Of a stretch of DNA of 64,000 bases, positions 1,081 through 53,721 are shown piece by piece. The notes under the pieces are model-generated. The model was given only the letters and a program-made list of their open reading frames with translations, did no database searches and was not told the origin of the DNA. Source of the stretch: Myxococcota bacterium (lineage in GTDB: Bacteria; Myxococcota_A; UBA796); the NCBI GenBank assembly GCA_029251165.1, contig JAQXDW010000045.1, positions 290-64,289 of the forward strand, in the 5' to 3' direction. The position numbers and the translations under genes are program-made. Within the stretch, counting starts at the first letter, position 1; every line of letters begins with the position of its first letter.

Positions 1081-2517
1081 TCACCGACCGCTCAGCATGG
1101 CCTCCAGCCGACGACGATCCACCTTTGCGTTGTGCCGTGGGTCCACCGGAACGGCCTCGACCTCGACCACCCGCACGCCACCTGCAGCCTCGGTGACCAT
1201 TGCCTCCCATCCCGCTGGGGCTCCGCTGACCGCACACGCCAGCACCGCCTCTCCGGCGACCTCCGCCAGCCCTGCCTTCACCACAAACGGCAGCAGCTCT
1301 GCGGGGGCCTCGACCTGCATCGGCCACACCCCACCGACCCGGCCTCCGGCGCGTCCCACCAGCCACAGCCGTCCGTCCGCGTCTCGGTAGCCAGCATCTC
1401 CGGTGCGGTGCCACACCCGGCCATTCTCGCGGACCTTGTTCTCTGCGTCGGCCTCGGGGTCCTGGTCGTATCCCTGGTTTACATGGGGGCCCGCGACGAG
1501 GATCTCGTCTTCATCGAGCCGCACCTGGAGCTGTCGAACCGGCTGCCCGACCAGCGCGCCTCGGCCGCTGCGGGCGCCGTCTTCTAAATCCTGGAGGTTC
1601 TCTCGTACCGGCAGCACTGCGATGGGCTCGGCCTCCGTGGAGCCATACACGATTGAAATCTCTGCTTCTGGTGCGGCTCTACACAGCGCCTTGAGCATCC
1701 CGACGGGAACCCTGGCACCGCCGGTGTGGAGGTGCTCCAGCCCGGAGAGGCACTCGCCACGCTCCAGGAGGCGTCGGGCGAGGGGGCCGAAGAACGCCGG
1801 AGAGCCAGAGATGCTGGTCACACCAACCGTGCGGATTTGGTCGATCAGGCGGTCGGGATCCACGTCGCCTGGACGGCGCAGATCGGCATCCGCCAGCACA
1901 CAGGTCGCGCCGCTGGCAAGGGAGTGGAGCAGGAAGACCGGCAGGGTCGGCATGTCGACGTCGCCTGGTGCCAGCCGGAGGTGCTCGGCGAGGATGCGGT
2001 GCTGGGTGAGCAGGAAGGCATGCGAGCGCGCGATGGCCTTGGGGGTGCCGGTGGTGCCGGTGGTGAACGTCAGCAGGGCAGGGTGATCACCGGGGTCGAC
2101 CGGCGGGATGACGCCCTGGATTTGGCTGAGCCTGCGGTGCGGTATCGGGATGAAGCCGGTCGAGACGTACAGCCCAAGTCCCCGCAGCGGACGAAGCTTG
2201 AGACGGAGGAGGTGGGCCCTGGGAGAGCCGATCATCGCCACAGGGGCATGTCGGGTGAGGATCGTGGAGATTGGTGCCGAGGGATCGATGAGCACCGCGG
2301 TTGCACCGACATGAAACAGGGCGAGCAGGGCGACGTACAGCTCGATGCTCATCGGAACGAGGAGGACCACCCGATCGCCTGGCCGCAGTCCGAGGTCCAC
2401 CAGCCCCCCAGCCACAGTCCCGACCCGCTGGCGGAGGGCTGTGAAGCTGAGTGTTCGACCATCGGGCTCGATGATTGCCGGTCGTTCGGCGTCCTGGAGG
2501 AGCGCGACGATGTTCAC
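1081..2517 (-). CDS. AMP-dependent synthetase/ligase (acyl-CoA or acyl-ACP ligase family)
   Basis: 478 aa. The AMP-binding signature LTFTTGTTGTPKAIARSH (T[SG]G[ST]TGxPK) is present. Its ATG overlaps the stop of the upstream GNAT-like gene (2514..2517), which suggests an operon. Confidence 0.8.
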   Translation of the reverse strand: MNIVALLQDAERPAIIEPDGRTLSFTALRQRVGTVAGGLVDLGLRPGDRVVLLVPMSIELYVALLALFHVGATAVLIDPSAPISTILTRHAPVAMIGSPRAHLLRLKLRPLRGLGLYVSTGFIPIPHRRLSQIQGVIPPVDPGDHPALLTFTTGTTGTPKAIARSHAFLLTQHRILAEHLRLAPGDVDMPTLPVFLLHSLASGATCVLADADLRRPGDVDPDRLIDQIRTVGVTSISGSPAFFGPLARRLLERGECLSGLEHLHTGGARVPVGMLKALCRAAPEAEISIVYGSTEAEPIAVLPVRENLQDLEDGARSGRGALVGQPVRQLQVRLDEDEILVAGPHVNQGYDQDPEADAENKVRENGRVWHRTGDAGYRDADGRLWLVGRAGGRVGGVWPMQVEAPAELLPFVVKAGLAEVAGEAVLACAVSGAPAGWEAMVTEAAGGVRVVEVEAVPVDPRHNAKVDRRRLEAMLSGR

Positions 2518-3338
2518 AGCGTCTTCTCAAACAAGACGTACTCTCGAATCCGCTCGCCGAGATCGCGAGAGATGCGCTGAGAGCGGTTGCCGTGTGCCAT
2601 CAGGGCATGGACTCCGCCGCCAGAGAAGCCCAGCGCAGCGCCGACTCGGTGCGTCTCTCCGACCAGCCAGCTTCCCAGTCCCAGCCCGCGAAATGCTGGC
2701 ATCACTGCAAGGGTCTTGATGACGAATTCCCCACGCTGTGGGCTGAAGGCATCGGGGTAGCTGAAGCAGAAGCCGCCCGGAGCACCGCTCGGTGAGCGGG
2801 CGAGCAGGGTGAGCTGCGGGGTGAGCAGCGGACGCACCGGAGCGTAGAGGGCTCCGAATGATTCACGGTCGATGGGGGTGTAGAAGGCGCTGTCGCCAAA
2901 CGAGGCCAGCGACATCTGCCAGAACAGATCCAGCGCGGACTCAAAGTCTCCCAGCGCGGTGAGATCCTCCAGCTGCCAGCCGGCAGCGCGCAGCGTGGTG
3001 TCTCGCTGGCGCGTGGCGGTGATCTGGGGAGTGTTTTCAGCATGGATCGAGGCGTAACGGTGCGCTTCGCTGTATCCTGCAGCCCGCCACGGGGCAGGGG
3101 AGGCGGTCGGCTCACCTGGAAAGTATGGCCGCTCGTTGGGGCCGATGTTGGCGCGGTACGCCGACCAGGTCGAGCCCGAGAGCGGGCCGAGCGCATGCGT
3201 GCAGCCGGCAGCACGCAGCCAGTCCTCTGCGGCCGTCAGCTCGCCGAGCGGATCGTCACTGGTCGGCGCACCGATACAGCCGACGGGGTGCAGGCCAGGA
3301 TTGACCCAGGCAGACAGCGGGGCGGGGGCAGTGCGCAT
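2514..3338 (-). CDS. GNAT-fold acyltransferase (candidate N-acyl amino acid / OlsB-like N-acyltransferase)
   Basis: 274 aa. The C-terminal region KTLAVMPAFRGLGLGSWLVGE resembles GNAT motif A (R/Q-x-x-G-x-G/A). It is translationally coupled to the AMP-ligase. The substrate is not inferable from sequence alone. Confidence 0.5.
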   Translation of the reverse strand: MRTAPAPLSAWVNPGLHPVGCIGAPTSDDPLGELTAAEDWLRAAGCTHALGPLSGSTWSAYRANIGPNERPYFPGEPTASPAPWRAAGYSEAHRYASIHAENTPQITATRQRDTTLRAAGWQLEDLTALGDFESALDLFWQMSLASFGDSAFYTPIDRESFGALYAPVRPLLTPQLTLLARSPSGAPGGFCFSYPDAFSPQRGEFVIKTLAVMPAFRGLGLGSWLVGETHRVGAALGFSGGGVHALMAHGNRSQRISRDLGERIREYVLFEKTL

Positions 3339-3360
3339 GGCTCAGTTTACTACTGACCGC

Positions 3361-5037
3361 TCAGAGCGTGATCTCGAAGGCGCTGTAGCTGGTGGTGGTG
3401 TTTCGAGGGAAGACCACCGCGCGGAGCTGACGGGCGAGGCAGTCGCGGACGGTGGTGTCTCCGCTGGTTACATCCAGGCCGATGAGCACGCCGAGCGGAG
3501 AGACATAGCCTCGGAGGCTCGTCTCGCTGGTGATGCAGGTGTCGACCCCGGTCCGAACGGGCTCGATCGCGTTGGTTACCTCGACGAGGCTCAGATCCGA
3601 TCGCGAGTCGGAGGCGACGGGCCGGAAGGTCATCTCGTCGGTCAGCTCCAGTCGCGGCGTGAGGACCAGCAGCTCTCCCTCGGGGACCGTGACCTCTTCC
3701 TCCCAGCTCTGGAAGCCGCTCGCCTCGATGCGCACGGTGAACGGCTCATCGATCGGGAAGGCCTCGTGGATATCGATCACCCCGCCCAGGCCCAGCGTCT
3801 GACCATCGATCACGATGTCTCCGGTCGGTGGGTCGGCGCGGACAACGAGGTGGGTCTGGGTGGAGGTTGCCATGTGCTGAAGCCCAGCGAGCAGGGGAAA
3901 GCCAACGAGGGCGGCCACTGTGAGCACCGCTCCGACGGTCAGCAGCTGCTTGATGTAGACCTTCCGTCGGATCTCGATGAGCACGGTCCGGTTGCCGCAG
4001 CGACGGGTGGCGATGGTCACCTGGACCTCGCCCCGATCCTCGGGCATCGCCATCGGATCGACGGTGACGGTGATGGTCTGCTCGGGCTGGCGGGGATCGA
4101 GCGTGGCCGGAGAGGCGCTCGCCCAGGGCTGATCGACCCGGATCGTGCCGGCCATCTCTCCGCGACCGGTGTTCTTCACCACGATGGAGAGGTTGAGCGG
4201 CTGTCGAGCCGGGCGGGGGCGGATGACATCGGGGGCTTCGACCACGAGCTTGGGAACAAGCAGGACCGGTCGGGTCCCTGTGACGACCGCTGCGACAGCC
4301 GCATCGAGCTCGGTGCTGGGCTCCTCGATGGACTCTGGAGTGATCGGTGCCAGCTCGCTGAGCGGCGGGGGCTCGGGGAAGATGCGCTGGTACTGGTAGT
4401 CGTACAGGCGACGACGCTCGGCATCTCCCAGCACCCACCACGCAGCCTCCAGCGCAGTGCTCAGGCGCCGAAACCGCTCGCGATCGGTGATGTTGTTGAT
4501 CCACTTCCGACGTCGCTTGTAGAACGTCTCCAGCTGCTCGTGCGGAAGGAGAGGGTGAATCCCCAGCGCGGAGTAGTGGTCCGGCAGCTCACCCGCGCGA
4601 ACCAGATCCTTCTCGGTGAGGATCCGATCCAGGCATCCCTCGGCGATGTCTGCGGGAATGCCGATTTGTTCTGCCTGCTTTGCAACTGCGATCTCCGCCA
4701 GCGGGGTGAACTCCCCGTGGATGAGCGCACCCAGGATGAACATCTCCAGCTGATCCAGGCCGCCGCTGCGGATCTGAGCGTCGATGAACCGGAGGTAGTC
4801 TGTCCGGCTCTGGAGGAGGAGGTCTCGGAGACGGCTGAAGTTTTGGATGAACCAGGTCGCTTCGGCGCGGTCCTGGGAATTGTCCTGCTGGCCCTGTGCC
4901 CAGCTGTGACGATCCTCAAGGCCGGCTTCGCTCTCTCGGATCGAGGCTGTTGGCTTAATCCTCAGGTATGCGAAGAGCGTCGGTGACTCAAAGCGCGCCA
5001 GGTCAGTGTGCAGCTGCTCAAATGTACGGAAATCCAT
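3361..5037 (-). CDS. membrane protein with degenerate J-like domain (no HPD), one TM segment and a PEGA-like C-terminal domain
   Basis: 558 aa. DHYSALGIHPLLPHEQLETFYKRRRKWINNITDRERFRRLSTALEAAWWVLGDAERRRLYD aligns to the DnaJ J-domain consensus, but HPD is replaced by ITD. A hydrophobic helix (LLTVGAVLTVAALVGFPLLAGL) follows. The C-terminus VVRADPPTGDIVIDGQTLG...TVRIEASGF is PEGA-like. The gene lies 22 nt upstream of the GNAT gene on the same strand. Confidence 0.5.
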   Translation of the reverse strand: MDFRTFEQLHTDLARFESPTLFAYLRIKPTASIRESEAGLEDRHSWAQGQQDNSQDRAEATWFIQNFSRLRDLLLQSRTDYLRFIDAQIRSGGLDQLEMFILGALIHGEFTPLAEIAVAKQAEQIGIPADIAEGCLDRILTEKDLVRAGELPDHYSALGIHPLLPHEQLETFYKRRRKWINNITDRERFRRLSTALEAAWWVLGDAERRRLYDYQYQRIFPEPPPLSELAPITPESIEEPSTELDAAVAAVVTGTRPVLLVPKLVVEAPDVIRPRPARQPLNLSIVVKNTGRGEMAGTIRVDQPWASASPATLDPRQPEQTITVTVDPMAMPEDRGEVQVTIATRRCGNRTVLIEIRRKVYIKQLLTVGAVLTVAALVGFPLLAGLQHMATSTQTHLVVRADPPTGDIVIDGQTLGLGGVIDIHEAFPIDEPFTVRIEASGFQSWEEEVTVPEGELLVLTPRLELTDEMTFRPVASDSRSDLSLVEVTNAIEPVRTGVDTCITSETSLRGYVSPLGVLIGLDVTSGDTTVRDCLARQLRAVVFPRNTTTSYSAFEITL

Positions 5038-9744: not shown

Positions 9745-11006
9745 TGTCGATCAGCAGGCGAGGACTCGGCGGACTGATGGCGGGCGGGCTGCTCCTGCCC
9801 CGAGCGCTCCAGGCGGCCTCCGGTAGCGGGGATCGGAAGTTCCTGTTTGTCTTCTGTGTGGGCGGCTGGGATCCGACCTGGGTGTTCGCGGATCTGCTGG
9901 GCGCGCAGGATGTCTACACCGATCCGACCGCGGAGCTGGGCACGGCTGGCGGGCTGGAATTTGTCGACTCTGCTGGGCGGCCATCGGTTCGGAGCTTCTT
10001 TGAGCGCTACGGCGACCGGTGCTGCATCCTCAACGGCCTCGAGGTCCGCTCGATCACCCACGAGGCCTGTCGCCGCATCATCCTGACGGGCGGCACCGCT
10101 GGACTGACCGATGACTGGCCCGCAATCATCGCTGGGAACACCACCGACTTCACCCTGCCTGATCTGGTGCTCTCTGGACCGTCCTACACCTCGCAATACA
10201 CCGGCTCGGTGATGCGGGTTGGTCCCGACGGACAGCTCGGGAAGCTGCTGTCCGGGTCCGCCTTGTCCAGCAGCACGCTGCCGACACAGGCCCTCCCCGA
10301 GAGCGCCAACGCTGACATCGAGGCGTTCCTTCGCCGGCGCAGCGCAGCCGCCCAAGAGGTCGCAGCCGGTCAGTCCGCACAGTTCCTCCGGGACTTCGAC
10401 ACCTCGCTCGGGCAGCTTGATGCCATTCGGGCGATATCCGGGCAGCTGGATCTGTCGGTGAACGGTCTGAACTACGTCTACGTCCAGGAGCGCGTGCTCC
10501 CGGCGCTGGACTGCTTCGAGCTTGGGCTGACCCGCTGTGCTGTCGTAGAGCATGCCGGTGAGTGGGACATCGGCTGGGACAGCCACTCTGGCATCGATCG
10601 GCAGGGGGCGCACTACTCGGTGCTGTTTGACGATCTCGCTGGGATCGTGGAGACACTGTCTCAGCGCGCTGGCAGCCAGGGCGGATCGCTGCTCGATGAG
10701 GTCACGGTGGTGGTCTTCTCTGAGATGGGCCGCGCGCCACAGCTCAACGTCACCGGCGGCAAGGACCACTGGACCTACACCTCTGCGATGCTCATCGGCG
10801 CGGGGGTGGCCGGAGGCCAGGTCATCGGCGGCTACGACGACAGCCTCTTTGGGCGCGCGGTCGATCTCCGCACTGGCGCGACCACAGACAGCGGCTCTGG
10901 GCTGACAGCGGCGAACCTCGGGGCCACCCTGCTGGCCATGGCCGATATTGATCCTGCAGAATTTACCGAAGCGGAACCGATCAGCGCGGCGATGTCTGAG
11001 GGCTGA
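9741..11006 (+). CDS. DUF1501 family protein with a twin-arginine signal (sulfatase-like fold)
   Basis: The N-terminus MMSISRRGLGGLMAGGLLLPRALQAA is a Tat-type signal. The gene is paired with a DUF1549/DUF1553 protein immediately upstream. The overlapping 540-aa minus-strand ORF 9528..11150 is judged a high-GC shadow. Confidence 0.7.
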   Translation: MMSISRRGLGGLMAGGLLLPRALQAASGSGDRKFLFVFCVGGWDPTWVFADLLGAQDVYTDPTAELGTAGGLEFVDSAGRPSVRSFFERYGDRCCILNGLEVRSITHEACRRIILTGGTAGLTDDWPAIIAGNTTDFTLPDLVLSGPSYTSQYTGSVMRVGPDGQLGKLLSGSALSSSTLPTQALPESANADIEAFLRRRSAAAQEVAAGQSAQFLRDFDTSLGQLDAIRAISGQLDLSVNGLNYVYVQERVLPALDCFELGLTRCAVVEHAGEWDIGWDSHSGIDRQGAHYSVLFDDLAGIVETLSQRAGSQGGSLLDEVTVVVFSEMGRAPQLNVTGGKDHWTYTSAMLIGAGVAGGQVIGGYDDSLFGRAVDLRTGATTDSGSGLTAANLGATLLAMADIDPAEFTEAEPISAAMSEG

Positions 11007-44820: not shown

Positions 44821-45801
44821 ATGCCGAGCCTTCCCCCGATGGTCACCTTTGCTGCGCCCTCCGGGACCGGCAAGACCACCCTCCTTGAGGGCGTCATCGG
44901 TGCGCTGGTCGGGCGCGGGTACCGGGTCGCGGTGCTCAAGCACGATGCCCACCGGCTGACGCTCGACAAGCCCGGCAAGGACTCCTGGCGGTTCCGTCAG
45001 GCCGGCGCGTGGCGGGTGGTGGTCGCCAGCAGCGAGCAGCTCGGGCTGTTCTCTTCGCTGGACGGTCCGATCTCACTGGCGGGCGTCTCGGACACCCTGC
45101 TCCCCGGCGCAGACATCGTGCTCACCGAGGGCTTCCGCCGCGCGGGGCTGCCGACCATCCTGGTCCGTCGAGCCGGGGCCTCGGATCCCACCTGGGAGAT
45201 GCCGGAGAACCTCGTCGCGATCGCCACCGACCGCCCCGAGCCCGGGCCGCTGCCGTGCCTCCCGCTGGATGCGCCGGCTGCGGTCGCCGACTTTATTGAG
45301 TCCCGGTGGCTCTCCGCTGCTGCGCCGGCCCGACCGGTCACCGCTGCGCTGCCCATCGGTGCCGACATCGCCCCCGACCTCCAGCGCCGCTGGATCGCCC
45401 GGGCCCGGGAGCAGTTCGGCGACAACGTCTTGCTCATCGCCGATGCAGACGCCGCCCCGGTCGGGGATGCGCGCATCGTCACCGACATCCGCCCCGGCCT
45501 CGGCCCGCTCGGGGCGCTCCTCACTGCGCTCGCTGCCTCCGAGACGCCGGACGTGCTGCTGTGGGGCGTGCGCCACTGGCAGGAGCACCCCGACCGCATC
45601 GCAGCGATCCGGGCCGCGGCACCGCGCGCGGATGCTGCGGTGCCGATGCAAGACGGCTTCCCGGAGCCGCTGCTGGCCCGGTACGGTCACCGGTGCCTGT
45701 CCGCGATCCAGGGGGCCCTGCTGAGCGGGGAGCGGCGAATGAACGCCTGGTGGGGGCAGGTCCACGTCTGCTGTATTGCTGAGGAGGACTGGCGGGGCTG
45801 A
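44821..45801 (+). CDS. MobB-MobA fusion (molybdopterin-guanine dinucleotide biosynthesis)
   Basis: N-terminus FAAPSGTGKTTLLEGV...VLKHD is a MobB P-loop. The C-terminal half (…GPLGALLTALAA…FPEPLLARYG…) resembles MobA guanylyltransferase. Confidence 0.65.
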   Translation: MPSLPPMVTFAAPSGTGKTTLLEGVIGALVGRGYRVAVLKHDAHRLTLDKPGKDSWRFRQAGAWRVVVASSEQLGLFSSLDGPISLAGVSDTLLPGADIVLTEGFRRAGLPTILVRRAGASDPTWEMPENLVAIATDRPEPGPLPCLPLDAPAAVADFIESRWLSAAAPARPVTAALPIGADIAPDLQRRWIARAREQFGDNVLLIADADAAPVGDARIVTDIRPGLGPLGALLTALAASETPDVLLWGVRHWQEHPDRIAAIRAAAPRADAAVPMQDGFPEPLLARYGHRCLSAIQGALLSGERRMNAWWGQVHVCCIAEEDWRG

Positions 45802-46139: not shown

Positions 46140-46168
46140 GGGCACCGGGAGCACTCCCCCCGGTGCCC
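46140..46168. terminator. perfect 10-bp stem hairpin GGGCACCGGG-N9-CCCGGTGCCC immediately 3' of the MVP-like gene stop
   Basis: Read directly from the sequence. There is no U-tract, so it may be a bidirectional or Rho-assisted terminator between convergent genes. Confidence 0.4.
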
Positions 46169-46175
46169 GGGGCAC

Positions 46176-48983
46176 TTACTTCTCCGCGCTGCCATTCTTC
46201 TCCGGCAGCATTCCCTCAATCGTGCGCCCCAGCCGCGTCCCGCCGACGACATCCTGCAGGATGCTGGCGACGTCCTTGCCCTGGAACAGGCTCACGAGGT
46301 TCATGTTCGCCGCGACCTCCTCCAGCAGCATCTTGTCGCCGACCGCAGTCAGTGCCTCCACCAGCGCAGGCTGGACGGCCTTGCGCTCTGCGACCGTCGC
46401 CGCGCTCTGTGCCGCCAGCTCCTCGAGTCGGATCCGGGTCATCTCGGCCTCGTGGGTCTGCGCTTCTGCATGGCGGAGCCGGTCAGCCTCGACGGCTGCT
46501 GCGATCGCTTTCTCAGACTGGGCCAGCTTCGCGGCGCTCTCCTGGTGCTCGCGGGCCAGCCGAGCGGTCAGCTCGCCCTCGAGCCGGGACGACGTGAGGC
46601 GGACCTCTTCTGCGGAGACCTTCTCTCGGCTCGCCAGCGTCAGCAGCTCGCGCTCGTGCTCCAGCTTCGCGACCACGCTCTCCAGCGCCGCCCGACGGGT
46701 CCGGGCCTCCTGGAGCATCTCCATGCGCTGCCGCTCGATGTCGTGGCGCAGCTTCTCGCTCCGCAGCTTCTCCTCTCCCTGGCGGTCGGAGATGTGCAGG
46801 CTGACGCTCTCTCGCTGCACGCCCTCCAGCAGGCCCGCGATCTCCTGGTCGAGGATGGTGCTGGAGAGCACCTCCACCTCCGTGACCCGCATCCCGTTCT
46901 CACCAAATGGGCGCCCGGTGCGGCCCTGCTCGGTCTTCTCGCCGAGGATGGTGTCTCGAATGACGCCGGGCACGTTGGGCCACAGCGCAGTCAGCGAGAG
47001 CTGGCGGCAGCGGCTTCGGACCAGCGAGCGGAGGTGATCGCAGAGCACCCCGACGTAGTTCTCGTGGGTGAACCACTGGTCCTTGTGGGCATCATCGAAG
47101 GTGACCTGGTAGCTGACTCGGATGTGCAGCTCGACGAAGTCGGCGGTCTGTGCCCGGATGACGTCGGTCACCCGGTTTCCGACGGTGCGCAGGAAGCAGG
47201 TCTTGATCACCTGCTTGTCGGCCTTCGGAGTGCCGGTAGAGAGGGTCATGGAGACCAGCGTCTCTTCGTACTCCAGCAGCTCCATGCACGGACCCTGGAT
47301 CACCCGGTAGCCGTCTGAGGAGGCGGCCATGATCGCGGTGTTCGGGGGCACGGTGATCGAGATGGCCCAGGGGGTGACCATCGGCTTGAGGGTCTTCTTG
47401 TGGGGCTCTCCCTCTGCGATCCAGAGGTTCCACTGCTCGGTCGGCACCCGCCGGGTGATCTGGACCTCCTTGCGCGGATCGACGAGGTATGACCGCTTCC
47501 CACGGACCAGCCGCGCCTCGCCGCTCTCCAGATCCCGGACGTAGATGCCGCTCTTCTGATCGATGCCGATCGCCTCGATGAAGGTCTCGGTGTGGTCGTT
47601 GCCGAAGTGGGGCTGACCGTTGAGGGGATCGAGGATCTCGATCTCGTTGAACGGAAAGAAGAACGAATTGACCCCGGTGAGGATCATCTCATCGCCTGGA
47701 TAGTAGATCTCCTGGGGCAGCTCGGCTCCACGAGGCAGCCGGACGGCCAGCTTCTCCCTCGGGATCTGCCGGATGAACCGCAGCCAGAGCCCGCGCTGGG
47801 GCAGCAGCTCATAGGCGTAGTAGATCCGGTTGCTGGAGCCCTCGGTGAGGAAGGTGTCGTAGGGGCCTGGGAAGACGCGGGCCGGGCCGACCTTGATCTG
47901 CCGCTTGCCGTCGGCGTCGAGGATGACGCAGAACTCCTTCTCACCGAGCACCACCGCCTGACGGATGAGGCGGTTCTTGCGGACCTCTCGCTCCAGCGCG
48001 CTGCGGTGGATCGGGCTGTTGAGCAGCGCCTGGATGGTCTCGGAGGTCAGCGAGCCGTCGCTGCCGCCTTCAAGACGAGGAGGCGCAGCAGGGCGCTGAG
48101 AGATCTGCTGCTGGATGGCCTGTCGCCGCCGGGGGCTCTGGTCCGTCTTGCTGCGTCGGCTGCGCTTGGAGTACCGCTGCGGCTCCGCCTCAAGCTCCTC
48201 AGCGGACTGCTCCGCCACGATGAACTCTTGGTCTACGATGTCTGGCTCGCGAGCGAACTCCGGCAGCGGCATCTCCTTGAGGATGCGGCGTGCCGCATCG
48301 GCGGTGACCTGTCTGCCGTTGCCATCGACCGAGAGATCCGGGACCACATCGACGCCGGTTGGCGGGATGTAGAGCTGGGTGTCCAGGCCACGGATCACGA
48401 TGAGCTGGCCACGGGTCAGGTTGATCTCGCTGGTGGAGATGTCATCAGCCGGGGCATCTTCCTCGACGGTCGCGCTGGTGATCTGCGCGGAGCGGGCCGT
48501 GATCTCGTAGTAGGGAGCCGTCGGATCGACTCCACCGTAGACCTTGACGACGAGGTACTGGTTGCTGGCGAGCTCGTGGGCATCGCGGACCTCGCAGCGC
48601 TGGCCGGGGCGGAGATAGAACGAGCAGGGACCCGGGATCATCGCCCGCGTTCCGTTCTTGAGCTGCTTGGGCTCGTTGCGGTTGGGGCGGAAGTGCCCGT
48701 TGGGGTGGCCCTCCTCGCGCTCGTTGAGGGGGTTGAACAGCACCGCATACTGGGAATCGGTGACCTCGACCATGCGCTGCGGGCGGTTGTTGGGGCTCTC
48801 GGAGAAGCCACCCCGACCATCATCGACCACCACCCGGTCTGCGGCGGTGGGGGAGACCATGGTGGGGCCGACGTGGAGGATGACCTCTCCCTTGTCGTCG
48901 TCCTGCACCCAGAGGAACTCTCGCTCGGTGACCGGAATCTTGCTGCGGCTGCCGCGTGCAGCTTCAGAATCGTATCGGCTCAT
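46176..48983 (-). CDS. major vault protein (MVP) homologue
   Basis: 935 aa. Several segments align by eye to human MVP. [22 protein letters not shown]...[11 protein letters not shown] aligns with [18 protein letters not shown]...[31 protein letters not shown] aligns with [98 protein letters not shown] aligns with the MVP shoulder region [76 protein letters not shown]. A long Glu/Ala/Arg-rich coiled coil then matches the cap-helix. Confidence 0.8.
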   Translation of the reverse strand: [935 protein letters not shown]

Positions 48984-49082
48984 GTTGACCTCTTTCTTGT
49001 TTTCTTCAGACCACGAGATGCCCCACCACCGAGGGGACGATGGAGCGTGTGCTCGCTGGCTGGAGCTGGGGGCTGGCTGCCT

Positions 49083-49101
49083 AAGTGTAGATCTAACACT
49101 T
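49083..49101. promoter_or_regulatory. near-perfect palindrome AAGTGTAGATCTAACACTT in an AT-richer promoter region upstream of the MVP-like gene
   Basis: Inverted repeat AAGTGT/ACACTT around a GATC core, about 100 bp upstream of ATG 48983. A TATACT-like element is nearby on the coding strand. Confidence 0.35.
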
Positions 49102-49151
49102 ATGGCTGAGAGTCATCCAGCAGTTCTAGTATAAATACGGATTTAGCTGAA

Positions 49152-49928
49152 CTACAGTCCCGCGAGACGTGCGGTCATGACAAACCCAGTCGCAGTCTCT
49201 GACCGGCCCTCTGGTGGGAATCGCCGCCGCAGCTCATCGGCATCTGCGACGTCGATGACCTCAAAGTCGAGCCGCCTGAGCAGGCCGGAGAGATCCTCGG
49301 GGTGGATGGCAAACCGAACCGGCTGACCGAGGTGGCTGAGCTGCGCTGGACGCGTCGCCATTGACCGGCCATCCAGCACCAGCAGCGATCGGGGTGTACA
49401 CAGCGATCGGATCGCGCTGAGGGTGGCCTTGACCTCGGCGCGGCTGGAGAACATTGCTCCACCCTCCCAGAGAAACAGGCTCCGCGTCGCAGGAGAGAAC
49501 CCCGCAGATCGCAGCGCAACCGACAGCGGGCCTTCTGGACTGACCCGAACCCGCTCGGCCATCTCGACCGCCGTGATGGCAAAGATCGTTCTATCGCTGA
49601 GTGCATCGGCGAACCGCCAGGGACGGGTGTCGTAGTCCCCCACGATGAGAACGACCTGTCCGGGATCGGGCGAGGTGAGGAACCGGGTGAGGGCGTGGTC
49701 GAAGTAGCTCGACCGTCGCAGCACATACTGGGCTTCCGCGAGGCTCACCCCCCGTGGTCTTCCCCGAATACGCTCGATGAGGCCTGGGCTGGGGAGGAGC
49801 CGGTTGACGAACGAATCGCCTGCCAGCTGCATGCGGATCTGACCCGCGATGGCAGCGGCATGGGCAGTGCTCTGGTGATTCTGAGTTGCGTTGGTCAGCG
49901 GGCCGGCTCCAGATAGGGAGTACACCAC
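49152..49928 (-). CDS. class I SAM-dependent methyltransferase, LCMT/TIGR00027-like (O-methyltransferase)
   Basis: VLIVGDYDTRPWR (VxLGAGxDTRxxR-like) and LWEGGAMF motifs. The start is taken at GTG 49928, because the ORF-track start at 50072 would overlap the convergent glutaredoxin gene by ~130 bp. Confidence 0.55.
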   Translation of the reverse strand: MVYSLSGAGPLTNATQNHQSTAHAAAIAGQIRMQLAGDSFVNRLLPSPGLIERIRGRPRGVSLAEAQYVLRRSSYFDHALTRFLTSPDPGQVVLIVGDYDTRPWRFADALSDRTIFAITAVEMAERVRVSPEGPLSVALRSAGFSPATRSLFLWEGGAMFSSRAEVKATLSAIRSLCTPRSLLVLDGRSMATRPAQLSHLGQPVRFAIHPEDLSGLLRRLDFEVIDVADADELRRRFPPEGRSETATGFVMTARLAGL

Positions 49929-49943
49929 AACAGGAGGCCACCC

Positions 49944-50309
49944 ATGCCCATTCGAGATCGTCTGCGGCGGCTGCTGAGCCTCGAGAAGCCCGCATCTCCA
50001 CCCGCCGAGCGCGCCAAGCCGGCTCCGGAACCCACGCCGACTCCGAGCACTCCGGCCGCGCGCCCTGAGCACACGCTCGTCCTCTACAAGTACGACGCCT
50101 GCCCGTACTGTCGTCGGGTGATGCAGGTCGTCGACAGACTCCGCCTCCAGGGCACCATCGAGTATCGAGACACCCGGACCGAGCCGAAGTGGCGCGGTGA
50201 CCTGCAGGAGCGCACTGGCCGTACGCAGGTGCCGTGCCTGTTCATCGACGGCGAGGCGATGTTTGAGTCTGCAGACATCGGCGACTGGCTCCAGAGCAAC
50301 TACGGATGA
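49944..50309 (+). CDS. glutaredoxin-family protein with a 35-aa Pro/Ala-rich N-terminal extension
   Basis: Active site CPYC in LVLYKYDACPYCRRV. AGGAGG SD upstream. The stop overlaps the next start. Confidence 0.75.
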   Translation: MPIRDRLRRLLSLEKPASPPAERAKPAPEPTPTPSTPAARPEHTLVLYKYDACPYCRRVMQVVDRLRLQGTIEYRDTRTEPKWRGDLQERTGRTQVPCLFIDGEAMFESADIGDWLQSNYG

Positions 50310-51049
50310 GGCGACTGATGGCTGGAGGACTCATTGTGCTGGGAGCCGTGGTGGCCGTCAGCGTGGTCGGCGGTGTCATCGTCAGTGATCCCCGGCCAGA
50401 GGGCATGCCCGGTCCCGCCGCAGAGGCCTTGACCGGTGCGCTCCAGTCCAGCGTCAACGTCGCGGCCTGGGAGCAGACCGGCGCGGTGGAGTGGACCTTC
50501 GGCGGGCGACAGACTCACCTCTGGGATCGCACTCGGCACCTCGATCGGGTGCAGTGGGGCAACAAGACTGTCCTCATCGACCTCTCCACCCAGCAGGGGC
50601 GGGCCTGGGTCGACGACGAAGAGGTCACCGGAGACAAGGCTGAGCGCCTGGTCGAGAAGGCCTGGGCGTTCTGGTGCAACGACGCCTTCTGGCTCAACCC
50701 GGTCGCCAAGATGCGTGACGAAGGCACCACCCGAGGTCTCGTCGAGCTTCCCGAAGGAGACGCCCTCCTCATCAGCTACAGCAGCGGCGGCGTCACCCCA
50801 GGGGATGCCTACCTCTGGATCCCGGGTGAGGATGGCCGACCGGCGTCCTGGCGGATGTGGGTCTCGATCATTCCGATCGGCGGCATACCCTCCAGCTGGG
50901 AAGACTGGCAGCCCCTCTCGACCGGCGCGATGGTCTCGACCAGACACAAGATGGGACCAGTGAGTCTGGAGGTGACCGGGCTCTCGGGAGCAGCCACGCT
51001 CAGCGAGCTGTACCCAGACAATGACCCGTTCGCTCCGCTTCTTCAGTAG
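50306..51049 (+). CDS. hypothetical membrane-anchored protein
   Basis: N-terminal TM helix LMAGGLIVLGAVVAVSVVGGVIV followed by a Trp-rich soluble domain. Confidence 0.45.
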   Translation: MRRLMAGGLIVLGAVVAVSVVGGVIVSDPRPEGMPGPAAEALTGALQSSVNVAAWEQTGAVEWTFGGRQTHLWDRTRHLDRVQWGNKTVLIDLSTQQGRAWVDDEEVTGDKAERLVEKAWAFWCNDAFWLNPVAKMRDEGTTRGLVELPEGDALLISYSSGGVTPGDAYLWIPGEDGRPASWRMWVSIIPIGGIPSSWEDWQPLSTGAMVSTRHKMGPVSLEVTGLSGAATLSELYPDNDPFAPLLQ

Positions 51050-51151
51050 AGCGCTGATTCTTCAGTAGAGCGGAGAGAGTGAATTCAGTGGATGACCTTC
51101 ATGTGGGCTGGTATTATTTGGTTGGTTGACCAAACAATAAATGGGGTTGCC

Positions 51152-52513
51152 ATGATCTCGCTGATTCCCAGTGCCCTGACCCGCTCGGAGTGTGCTGCGC
51201 TCATCCATCGCCTGACACCGGGCTTTCAGCGCTGCGGGACGGCATACCCGCCCTCATATCGGAGCAACGATCGGCAGGTCTTCGATGACCCTGCTCTCGC
51301 GGCCTCCCTTGCTGCTCGGCTGGGGGAGCACCTGCCGGCGTGTCACCGCGGCGGTCGGCTGGTCGGGGTCAACCATCGCCTGCGGGGCTGTCGCTATCGG
51401 CCTGGTCAGCAGTTCTCTCGCCACCTCGACGGCATCCACCACCACTCAGACACCGTACGCTCGGCCCTGACCTTCATGATCTATCTCAACGATGCTGCTG
51501 AATTTTCTGGCGGTGACACCCGGTTCTTCGCCAGCCGAACCGCTGATGCGGTCACCCACCGCATCACCCCGGCGGCCGGCAGCGTGGTTCTCTTTGACCA
51601 CGACCTGTGGCACGACGGCGAGACGGTCACCGATGGGGTGAAGTTCATCCTTCGGAGTGACCTCCTGTACGAATTCCCCCATCGACCCACTCAGGGACAC
51701 CGTGGCTACATCTGGGCGATCCAGCCGCTGTCAGACGGCACCGTGGCGACCGGGGGGCGGGACACCACCATCCGCATCTGGCGGGGGGCGGACTGCGTGG
51801 CGGTCTTGCCAGGACATGACCTCTCGGTGACGGCGCTTGCGGAGGATGGCCTCGGTCGTCTGTGGAGCGGCAGTCGTGACGGCACGGTGCGGATCTGGGC
51901 GCGGCGTCGTGAGCGCTGGTCCCTTGTCGAGACCCGACACGTGCACGACGGTGCGGTGCTGCGGCTGCTCGCTGGACCTGGCGGAGTGGTCAGCTCCGGG
52001 GCGGACGGGATGGTGTGCTGTGACAGCACGCGCCGACAGACCGGACAGGGCTGGGTGTGGGATCTGGCCTGGAGCCCCGGCGGCGGCCTGCTCACGGCTG
52101 GTGAGGATGGTCGGGTCTGCTGTGATGGCGCAGCGATTGTCCACAGCGATGAGCCGATCTGGTCGGTCGCTGTGATGCCGGATGGAGCCCCCGTTGCTGG
52201 GGATGCCGCCGGGCGGATTCACCACAGCGGTGCGATCCTTCCGGCACACTCGGGGGGCATTCGGGCGCTGCTGCCGCTGCCTGACGGGTCGCTGCTGTCT
52301 GCAGGGGAGGACAACATGGTGCGGCTCAGGGGGCGCGCGGTCGTTGTCCACGACGACTTCGTGACCGCCCTCGCGCGGGTCGATGGCGCGGTGCTGTCCG
52401 CCAGCTACGACGGATCGCTGCGGAGGACCTCGCTGGCGGCCCTCTCACCGGATCGTACGGCTCCCTCCATGAAGCCGGTCCAGACCGAGGCGGTCTCCGT
52501 CCCTGCCCAGTGA
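51152..52513 (+). CDS. 2OG-Fe(II) oxygenase (prolyl 4-hydroxylase-like) fused to C-terminal WD40 repeats
   Basis: HLDGIHHHSD...GGDTRFF...HDLWHDGETV matches the HxD...H iron-binding triad of P4H-type dioxygenases. The C-terminal half has repeated GHD..V/..DG.LWSGSRDGTVRIW WD40 units. The ATG at 51152 follows an AT-rich leader. Confidence 0.65.
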   Translation: MISLIPSALTRSECAALIHRLTPGFQRCGTAYPPSYRSNDRQVFDDPALAASLAARLGEHLPACHRGGRLVGVNHRLRGCRYRPGQQFSRHLDGIHHHSDTVRSALTFMIYLNDAAEFSGGDTRFFASRTADAVTHRITPAAGSVVLFDHDLWHDGETVTDGVKFILRSDLLYEFPHRPTQGHRGYIWAIQPLSDGTVATGGRDTTIRIWRGADCVAVLPGHDLSVTALAEDGLGRLWSGSRDGTVRIWARRRERWSLVETRHVHDGAVLRLLAGPGGVVSSGADGMVCCDSTRRQTGQGWVWDLAWSPGGGLLTAGEDGRVCCDGAAIVHSDEPIWSVAVMPDGAPVAGDAAGRIHHSGAILPAHSGGIRALLPLPDGSLLSAGEDNMVRLRGRAVVVHDDFVTALARVDGAVLSASYDGSLRRTSLAALSPDRTAPSMKPVQTEAVSVPAQ

Positions 52514-53721
52514 ATCCGGTCCACCGGCCGCGTGAGGGCATCTCCATGCACCGACAGGGTCAGCGGCCCACACACTCCAACCGGACAGCCTCGGGTCCAT
52601 GGATCCTCCGACCAGTCCTTGATCACGAGCTCGACGGGGGTTCTGGCGTCGGGGCCAAACCAGCGGGTGAGCGCTCCGAGCGCCTCCGTGCGCTGCTGGT
52701 GGACGGGGAGGGCGGTGAACCGACGGGCAGGCTCGCCGACGATGAAGCCGACCAGGGCTGCGGTGCCGTCTGGGGTGGTGTTGTCAAAGACCACCGTGAA
52801 CGGCCGGCCGTCTGCCACGACCTCCCCAGACAGGCTCGCCTCTCGCCAGAACGGTCGGTCATAGAGCGCGATGAGCTTGGTCGTTGCGCCCATCGGCATG
52901 CGCTGACAGAGCTGATCGCGACTGGCGGGCAGCTCGGGTGAGTAGCGGATGCGACCGGCGAGGACCGGCGAGATCGCCACGATGATCCGATCGGCGGTGT
53001 GCTGACCGCCGTCGGTGGTCACGACCACACGCTCGCCGGACTGATCGATGTGTCGGACGGGCTGCGACAGCCGCACGTCGAGGCCCTCCGCGAGTCGCTC
53101 GCACAACTGCTGCGCCCCGCCGACCAGCCGATCCTGCTGCGCGCCGTCTTCGATCTCGATGAGCGGTCGGATGCCCCCAGCAGCGCGGGCGTAGGAGAGG
53201 AAGTGAAGGGCCGAGACGGTGTCGGGATCCGAACCCAGTACCACCCGAACCGCAGCCGTCACCACCCGGCGCACGCTCTGGGTGCGGGTGCGCTGCCGTA
53301 CCCACTCTCCCATGGTCAGCACATCCAGTCCCGGCTCGTTGAAGCCCTGTGACAGCCGGCTGATCTGCCCCTCCATCCGCCGCAGCAGCACCTCCAGCTC
53401 GATGAGGGCGAGGGGGTGGAGCGAGGGAGTGTTGCCGCTGTAGTGCCCCAGCTTTCCGTCGAGATCGAGGATCTTGGCGCCGTGGTGGAAGGTCGGGAAG
53501 GTCTCGATTCCGAGCGCCTCGCACAGGGCATGCATGCGCTCTTGGGTCGGGCCGATCCACTGTGCGCCGAGATCAATGCTGGTGCTGCCCACGGTCTGGG
53601 TGAGGGTGCGACCACCGACCCGGTCTCGTGCCTCGACCACGGTCACCTGCTCACCCGCTCTTGTCAGGGCTTTCGCTGCTGTCAGCCCGGCGAGCCCTGC
53701 GCCGACGATGAGGACATCCAT
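52405..53721 (-). CDS. flavin-containing amine oxidase (FAD-dependent, MAO/PAO family)
   Basis: N-terminal dinucleotide fold VLIVGAGLAGLTAAKAL...VVEARDRVGGR. The C-terminal ...EGAVRSGERAA is typical of the family. Confidence 0.8.
   Translation of the reverse strand: MDVLIVGAGLAGLTAAKALTRAGEQVTVVEARDRVGGRTLTQTVGSTSIDLGAQWIGPTQERMHALCEALGIETFPTFHHGAKILDLDGKLGHYSGNTPSLHPLALIELEVLLRRMEGQISRLSQGFNEPGLDVLTMGEWVRQRTRTQSVRRVVTAAVRVVLGSDPDTVSALHFLSYARAAGGIRPLIEIEDGAQQDRLVGGAQQLCERLAEGLDVRLSQPVRHIDQSGERVVVTTDGGQHTADRIIVAISPVLAGRIRYSPELPASRDQLCQRMPMGATTKLIALYDRPFWREASLSGEVVADGRPFTVVFDNTTPDGTAALVGFIVGEPARRFTALPVHQQRTEALGALTRWFGPDARTPVELVIKDWSEDPWTRGCPVGVCGPLTLSVHGDALTRPVDRIHWAGTETASVWTGFMEGAVRSGERAASEVLRSDPS

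Follow-up and report, generated by a model that had tools for sequence, protein, structure and literature searches.

The gene described here encodes a major vault protein (MVP) homologue and lies on a 64,000-nucleotide stretch of an uncultured Myxococcota genome (contig JAQXDW010000045.1, positions 290 to 64,289), which we refer to as the window. Its coding sequence, at 46176..48983 on the minus strand, is a real open reading frame (ORF), initiated by ATG and specifying 935 amino acids (aa) plus stop; an earlier note on this DNA had proposed it without giving its strand. The protein is a true bacterial MVP homologue, now structurally supported, and it belongs to a known, already annotated prokaryotic MVP branch. 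By analogy with vault and SPFH cage proteins, its most likely function is that of a self-assembling cytosolic ring or cage, a reading that we consider probable.

Several profile methods identify the protein as MVP-like. In the Pfam search that the earlier note had proposed as a check, MVP_shoulder (PF11978) was significant, scoring 73.8 bits where the cutoff is 25 (E 1.5e-20) and covering profile positions 3-118 of 118. A HMMER search of PDB sequences returned MVP chains as the only matches (rat MVP, 1e-20), and the phmmer alignment reaches residue 888 of the query and residue 820 of rat MVP. With hhalign, a profile of the bacterial family aligned to residues 274-790 of human MVP, from repeat R6 through most of the cap-helix, with a probability of 99.8% (E 2.4e-28) and 29% identity across 474 columns; the human query sequence is identical to the deposited chain 11dr_A at 893 of 893 residues. 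Residues 1-343 of the bacterial protein were left unaligned in this run. The three segments that had earlier been aligned to MVP by eye (aa 350-371, aa 479-493 and a shoulder block, TPKADKQ...SYQVTF, aa 585-629) came out the same in the HMMER alignment to rat MVP and in the hhalign alignment to human MVP. Two repeat models, Vault_3 (aa 544-598, 25.1 bits) and Vault_4 (aa 471-502, 18.9 bits), fall just below their Pfam cutoffs in the 935-aa protein. Among 45 relatives, MVP_shoulder and Vault_3 match all 45 and Vault_4 matches 42, with best E values of 7e-10 for Vault_3 and 6.3e-6 for Vault_4.

Two structure models were obtained. Model 1 (AlphaFold) was based on an alignment of close relatives only (55-99% identity); its mean predicted local distance difference test score (pLDDT) was 61 and its N-terminal half was unusable. 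Nevertheless, Foldseek placed 12 MVP entries on top (E 5.6e-20 to 1.8e-16), with SPFH cages following from 4.8e-6. For model 2 the alignment was widened with divergent relatives of the Patescibacteria type. Residues 1-610 were then predicted with a pLDDT of 84.8 and a predicted template modelling score of 0.73, the N-terminal block reaching a pLDDT of ∼ 95 and residues 220-310 being disordered. The repeat region gave structural matches to MVP structures only. An MVP-type array of beta repeats is thus present N-terminal to the shoulder, and the cap-helix equivalent follows directly after it.

From the secondary structure of model 2 and the alignments we derive a layout of about three repeats, a disordered insert, four repeats, the shoulder, a 169-aa helix and a tail, giving about seven repeats compared with nine in rat MVP. 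The N-terminal block (aa 15-215; 48339..48941, minus strand, as are all the domains) comprises about three divergent MVP-type beta repeats that resemble R1-R3. Aligned by hhalign with the single human MVP sequence, it gave probabilities of 40% and 11% from a shallow alignment and 84.6% and 57% from a diverse profile; its similarity to the family's own R6-R9 is weak (27%). A short helix in model 2 separates this block from a hypervariable insert that is predicted to be disordered (aa 220-313; 48045..48326), with pLDDT below 50 in both models. The insert contains a small conserved motif, DQSxRxRQ, whose residues Q282, R285 and R287 never vary. In 73 relatives, the length of the variable region (aa 236-337) lies between 78 and 134 aa; its column conservation is 0.18-0.5 and its net charge is near zero. 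On account of this neutral charge throughout the family, we rejected the idea of a net-basic RNA-binding tail. A conserved helix (aa 314-339; 47967..48044), seen in both models as helices 314-322 and 324-339, leads to the R6-like repeat, and residues 327-341 are nearly invariant in the family.

The C-terminal two-thirds of the protein is more regular. Four repeats that correspond to R6-R9 (aa 340-602; 47178..47966) are assigned by the hhalign match of bacterial residues 344-602 to human residues 274-520; they have a pLDDT of 90-98 and span 264-269 aa in the 73 relatives. The SPFH-like shoulder domain (aa 603-712; 46848..47177), defined by the PF11978 match, has a pLDDT of 85-96 and a nearly fixed length of 110-115 aa. 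Where the earlier note had placed a coiled coil at the position of the cap-helix, DSSP assigns one continuous predicted helix of 169 aa (aa 713-881; 46341..46847; pLDDT 74-86). It aligns with human MVP up to residue 790, has nearly the same composition as the human cap-helix (E 17%, A 17%, L 12%) and is 165-169 aa long in the 73 relatives despite low sequence conservation. The tail (aa 882-935; 46179..46340) lies at the cap-ring position and is strongly conserved within the bacterial family: column conservation is 0.84-0.85 for aa 860-900, and G882, D883, K884 and N893-L896 are invariant.

Eukaryotic MVP (PDB 4V60, 9BW5, 6BP7) has the same order of beta repeats, SPFH-like shoulder, very long helix and C-terminal tail; it is likewise soluble, and one gene appears sufficient. 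Closed rings arise both in MVP and among SPFH cage proteins by lateral packing of the SPFH-like domain together with the long helix behind it. Because of this shared packing, we consider a dome or barrel built from a high-order ring the most likely assembly of the bacterial protein. In the mechanism we suggest, copies would associate laterally through the shoulder and the long helix, and this association would close into a high-order ring, giving a dome or barrel in the cytoplasm with a shorter wall than that of rat vaults. That the helix, shoulder and R6-R9 block hardly vary in length is in keeping with their being components of a geometric assembly. The vault particle is a closed barrel made of two 39-fold symmetric halves, and the R1-like N-terminus would be the candidate joint between such halves. 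PARP4 docks on human MVP at R3-R5. The insert occupies the place of R4-R5, next to this docking region, and by positional analogy only we speculate that it may serve as a built-in tether for cargo or a partner.

A number of observations weigh against this reading. Computation establishes the domain order, the solubility of the protein and the stand-alone, native character of its gene; assembly is argued purely from homology, and whereas the eukaryotic vault is a 78-mer, the bacterial protein is known here from its sequence and a predicted monomer. With about seven repeats rather than nine, and an insert of ∼ 100 aa (78-134 aa in the family) in place of the R4-R5 region, the geometry may differ greatly from that of the vault. 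The N-terminal repeats, in contrast to those of eukaryotic MVP, are too divergent for the Pfam models Vault (PF01505) and Vault_2, which match neither the 935-aa protein nor its relatives, and the N-terminal 340 residues are therefore unassigned by sequence models alone. Conservation of the cap-ring is undetectable in an hhalign comparison of aa 855-935 with human MVP 770-893 (E 0.48, no significant similarity), although the phmmer alignment runs on to query residue 888 and rat residue 820. Fourier analysis found no hydrophobic periodicity in the long helix and none in the human cap-helix used as a control, so the test does not discriminate. No vault RNA or any other Rfam family was found in the 64-kb window, and no TEP1- or PARP4-like gene (TROVE, PARP, VIT-vWA) is present among the genes annotated between ∼ 38.4 and 55.8 kb. 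TEP1, PARP4 and vault RNA are absent from many eukaryotic vaults too.

The ligand pocket of human MVP is also mostly replaced. Human MVP binds NAD+/ADP(-ribose) between adjacent shoulder domains through R437, R504, K506, R507, P508, H509, R511, L517, D521, F522, W545, P565 and K573 (PMC12280208). Ten of these 13 residues could be mapped through the hhalign alignment, R437, P565 and K573 lying outside the mapping. K506 and L517 are kept (K587 and L598) and D521 is similar (N603), all three positions being invariant in the family. The other seven are replaced (R504 by T, R507 by A, P508 by D, H509 by K, R511 by V, F522 by R and W545 by V). Conservation of this pocket is variable even among animals (PMC12280208), and for this reason we do not regard it as defining the family.

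We regard a true closed vault-like particle as possible though rather unlikely. The same doubtful standing applies to the more specific proposal of a closed, seven-repeat, vault-like cage shared by Polyangia, Patescibacteria and huge phages, with the insert as cargo tether. Were such a closed cage to exist, the vault would be an ancient prokaryotic nanocompartment that eukaryotes later inherited or acquired, and not a eukaryotic invention. Since 1986 it has been an open question what vaults do, and a growable, genetically tractable bacterial system would make it testable; cultured carriers of the gene include Polyangium fumosum DSM 14668, P. jinanense and Minicystis rosea DSM 24000. Since the family is already annotated and has been published in silico, the window adds no new principle, and it is not the first to pose the question of bacterial vaults. 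Instead, the analysis sharpens the target for a test: a single gene without an obligatory partner, a layout of three repeats, insert and four repeats, and a spread that extends to Patescibacteria and huge phages.

The alternative that survives best is a membrane-associated SPFH-type dome of the kind formed by flotillin, HflK/C, prohibitin or stomatin, which would cap a patch of the inner membrane and organize or shield membrane proteins. SPFH/Band-7 cages (HflK/C, flotillin, prohibitin, stomatin, QmcA) share the SPFH fold and the long helix with the bacterial protein and are its second-best structural matches. However, the 935-aa protein has no membrane-spanning segment, hairpin, lipobox or signal peptide; its highest 19-residue Kyte-Doolittle mean is 1.1, compared with the ∼ 1.6 expected of a membrane segment, and the N-terminus is polar. 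Band_7 (PF01145) does not match it at E ≤ 1, nor the 45 close relatives at E ≤ 0.01, and no NfeD-like or protease partner is encoded nearby. The N-terminal 600 residues add an MVP repeat wall that is foreign to classical SPFH proteins. The earlier note had named a generic SPFH/band-7 domain plus coiled coil as the explanation that would overturn its assignment; this does not account for an alignment to human MVP that runs from R6 to the cap-helix. We consider a membrane dome unlikely.

Another reading sees the protein as a shell that serves defence or sequesters nucleotides, modelled on the human MVP pocket and the TIR-like NADase of TEP1. The binding of NAD+/ADP(-ribose) between human shoulder domains (PMC12280208) is compatible with such a role, as are the NADase activity of TEP1 and its relationship to an antiphage system of bacteria (bioRxiv 10.64898/2026.05.01.722283), and the presence of MVP-like genes in huge phages would fit a part in phage-host conflict. 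Against this stand the replaced pocket residues described above and the genomic setting: the neighbours are housekeeping genes, there is no defence island, and TIR, PARP and NADase genes are missing from the vicinity. The MVP protein itself has no match in PADLOC or NCBIfam. A defence shell thus appears quite improbable.

The gene has the organization of a stand-alone unit. An AT-richer intergenic region of 168 bp (48984..49151, minus strand) separates it from the next gene upstream and holds the presumed MVP promoter, although a scan for the sigma-70 consensus upstream of the gene gave no match. The region is retained in a 90%-identical relative (locus L001) despite a different upstream gene. 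It contains an inverted repeat, AAGTGT-N7-ACACTT (49083..49101), a candidate operator ∼ 100 nt upstream of the start codon, which occurs once in the window compared with 0.03 expected copies. A 24-nt block, ATAAGTGTTAGA-NNN-ACACTTAGG, is invariant in the window, in L001 (3235-3253) and in an 88%-identical relative, L074 (∼ 9880-9900), with divergence on either side of it; none of the other 72 genome loci has it. The palindrome that had led the earlier note to call this promoter regulated-looking is thus a footprint conserved in three related genomes. Judged from the sequences, the block is a clean phylogenetic footprint and a candidate site for a DNA-binding regulator. L001 and L074 likewise keep the start codon and the Shine-Dalgarno-like GAGAGGTCA. 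At the other end, a perfect 10-bp GC-rich hairpin (46140..46168, minus strand) begins 8 nt past the stop codon and is a probable terminator stem; its arms, GGGCACCGGG and CCCGGTGCCC, are separated by 9 nt. The next gene beyond it (44821-45801, MobB/MobA-like) is convergent. Because it has its own conserved palindrome, a hairpin after its stop codon and a convergent neighbour, we regard the MVP gene as autonomous, with a candidate operator specific to its lineage. Expression would probably proceed from the gene's own promoter, with a lineage-specific regulator binding the conserved palindrome.

The neighbours that the earlier note had listed are all present. A methyltransferase of the LCM superfamily (49152-50072, minus strand; Pfam LCM 28.1 bits, TIGR00027 51.6 bits, below the cutoff of 93.55) lies directly upstream on the same strand and is followed by a glutaredoxin (49944-50309, plus strand), a fusion of a 2-oxoglutarate (2OG)-Fe(II) oxygenase with WD40 repeats (51092-52513, plus strand) and a flavin amine oxidase (52405-53721, minus strand). 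A multi-component system made up of these proteins and MVP, with the WD40 fusion in the role of TEP1, would be suggested by their adjacency in the window, by the methyltransferase next to MVP on the same strand and by the gene order, which is kept in the 88%-identical relative. In L074, however, the whole order is preserved as part of a stretch of unrelated housekeeping genes exceeding 20 kb, and since the collinearity in L074/L075 extends this far we take it to be ordinary synteny through recent common ancestry. In L001, at 90% identity, the upstream genes are different and the break lies just outside the MVP promoter region. Among 73 species-level loci with an orthologue, tblastn found the methyltransferase beside MVP in none, the amine oxidase in none and the WD40 fusion in one, as a weak match. 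The 168-bp region with its own footprint stands between MVP and the methyltransferase, and MVP is encoded on the other strand from the WD40 fusion, the glutaredoxin and the ORF without annotation that lies between these two. On the WD40 fusion, the TEP1 propeller models reach 21-22 bits, far below cutoffs of 89 and 32. The suggestion of a TEP1-like partner comes down to generic WD40 matches and one weak co-occurrence, and the functional link to the methyltransferase and the other neighbours found no support. The partner model is largely refuted by synteny, and we consider it very improbable.

Weakest of all is the reading in which the gene came recently from a eukaryote or belongs to an assembly contamination: a eukaryote-to-bacterium origin of bacterial homologues was raised as possible by Daly et al. 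2013 (PMC3762200), but identity to human MVP is only ∼ 29%, orthologues occur at 55-99% identity throughout Polyangia with deeper branches at 30-47%, the sampled prokaryotic groups are about equally distant from human MVP (50-108 bits), and the GC content of the gene, its GC content at third codon positions (0.87) and its codon usage (correlation with neighbours r 0.94) match the flanking genes, so that we take the gene to be native and this explanation to be extremely improbable.

The family is far from rare, contrary to what had been supposed. At a threshold of E ≤ 1e-3, an exhaustive profile search recovered 1,250 prokaryotic MVP-family clusters (50% identity), of which 590 also pass E ≤ 1e-30. 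The 935-aa protein has at least 446 close relatives, of which the best 120 show 55-99% identity and lengths of 910-980 aa, and orthologues occur in 73 species-level genomes. The gene is carried by cultured Polyangium species and Minicystis rosea and by metagenome-assembled genomes (MAGs) of Byssovorax and Nannocystaceae (L037), among others. Many members are already named 'major vault protein' (NCBI, JGI), and the UniRef label is 'Major vault protein shoulder domain-containing protein'. The exhaustive search also recovered divergent full-length relatives at 30-47% identity, and a word-indexed search with a profile of these gave ∼ 80 proteins, mostly from Patescibacteria. In three Patescibacteria loci the MVP gene likewise stands alone among unrelated neighbours. 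No plasmid in PLSDB carries an MVP relative.

Bacterial homologues have been described before. Corallococcus, Plesiocystis and other bacteria encode proteins with ∼ 25% identity to eukaryotic MVP, for which an MVP-like fold and MVP-like docking were predicted (Daly et al. 2013, PMC3762200), and homologues from Myxococcales, Cytophagales and Oscillatoriales have been reported (Sokolskyi 2019, bioRxiv 10.1101/872010). A 2023 preprint added two phage MVPs, from the gut phages ctOa11 and ct2Ri15 (bioRxiv 10.1101/2023.11.10.566534). The earlier homologues (Corallococcus, Plesiocystis, Enhygromyxa, Saprospira, Microscilla, Herpetosiphon) are also Myxococcota in part, stand at the same level of identity to eukaryotic MVP as the window protein, are known from sequence analysis only and belong with the window protein to the 'chemotroph' bacterial branch, not to the cyanobacterial eukaryote-like one; the window genome represents a different, uncultured Myxococcota lineage. 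The layout of three repeats, insert and four repeats, the stand-alone organization and the relatives in Patescibacteria and huge phages go unmentioned in the accessible portions of Daly 2013 and Sokolskyi 2019. A link of bacterial MVPs to gliding motility has been proposed (bioRxiv 10.1101/872010 and bioRxiv 10.1101/2023.11.10.566534); a distribution that includes Patescibacteria and huge phages argues against such a link. In the literature available to us we found no experimental study of a bacterial vault, and within that literature the description of these proteins as uncharacterized still holds at the experimental level.

Huge phages of 462-735 kb (LR756500.1, LR756501.1, LR756503.1; records unannotated) encode an 809-aa MVP-like protein, for instance at L079:2959-5388 in LR756501.1, a 735-kb 'uncultured phage'. 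It shows 32% identity over 81% of the query and scores 99.9 bits for MVP_shoulder, 43 for Vault_3 and 26 for Band_7. The phage proteins share the MVP_shoulder and Vault_3 core and align over nearly their full length, but they are shorter, touch Band_7 and are virus-encoded. A sister clade (P0277-P0324; 30-47% identity, 850-1110 aa) is positive for MVP_shoulder and has the same N-terminal architecture. Its members come mostly from Patescibacteria, the candidate phyla radiation (Buchananbacteria, Moraniibacteriota, Parcubacteria), and in addition from one bin labelled Candidatus Nanoarchaeia, with loci L076, L077 and L078. In L077, on a 469-kb Parcubacteria contig, 2.9 kb without a called gene (2083-5000) lie directly upstream of the MVP-like gene.

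Further observations concern the flanking genes. The methyltransferase ORF is 306 aa long when read from the first GTG, while the orthologue in L074 is called at 257 aa; the LCM/TIGR00027 match is confined to the C-terminal part, sequence comparison finds no relative of the protein in the PDB, and the true start is probably downstream of 50072. The 3' ends of the 2OG-WD40 fusion and the convergent amine oxidase share 109 bp, an overlap that is also called in L074. The oxygenase domain matches the PADLOC model '2OG, CAS-associated' (7.6e-15), probably a generic hit. In L001 (1-3354), the methyltransferase-glutaredoxin-WD40 block (window 49152-52513) gives way to two ORFs, 670 and 264 aa long, that match nothing in Pfam or NCBIfam, and the MobB/MobA-like downstream gene is retained. 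Clustering of all flanking ORFs from 74 loci gave no family-wide neighbour; the largest cluster consists of generic Ser/Thr kinases in 19 loci, on mixed sides and strands. In ten Polyangium-type loci (L019:7665-9920 and nine others), a protein with MutS domain V (69 bits, ∼ 620-750 aa) is encoded directly upstream on the same strand with a median gap of 85 bp. This gene is absent from the window and may be a genus-level operon partner of MVP. Finally, orthologues with 54-56% identity were found in Planctomycetota MAGs (L022, L023, L034, L035, L038, L061) and in a Thermoanaerobaculia MAG (L024, a bin assigned to Acidobacteriota), which suggests either cross-phylum transfer or mis-binned Myxococcota contigs.

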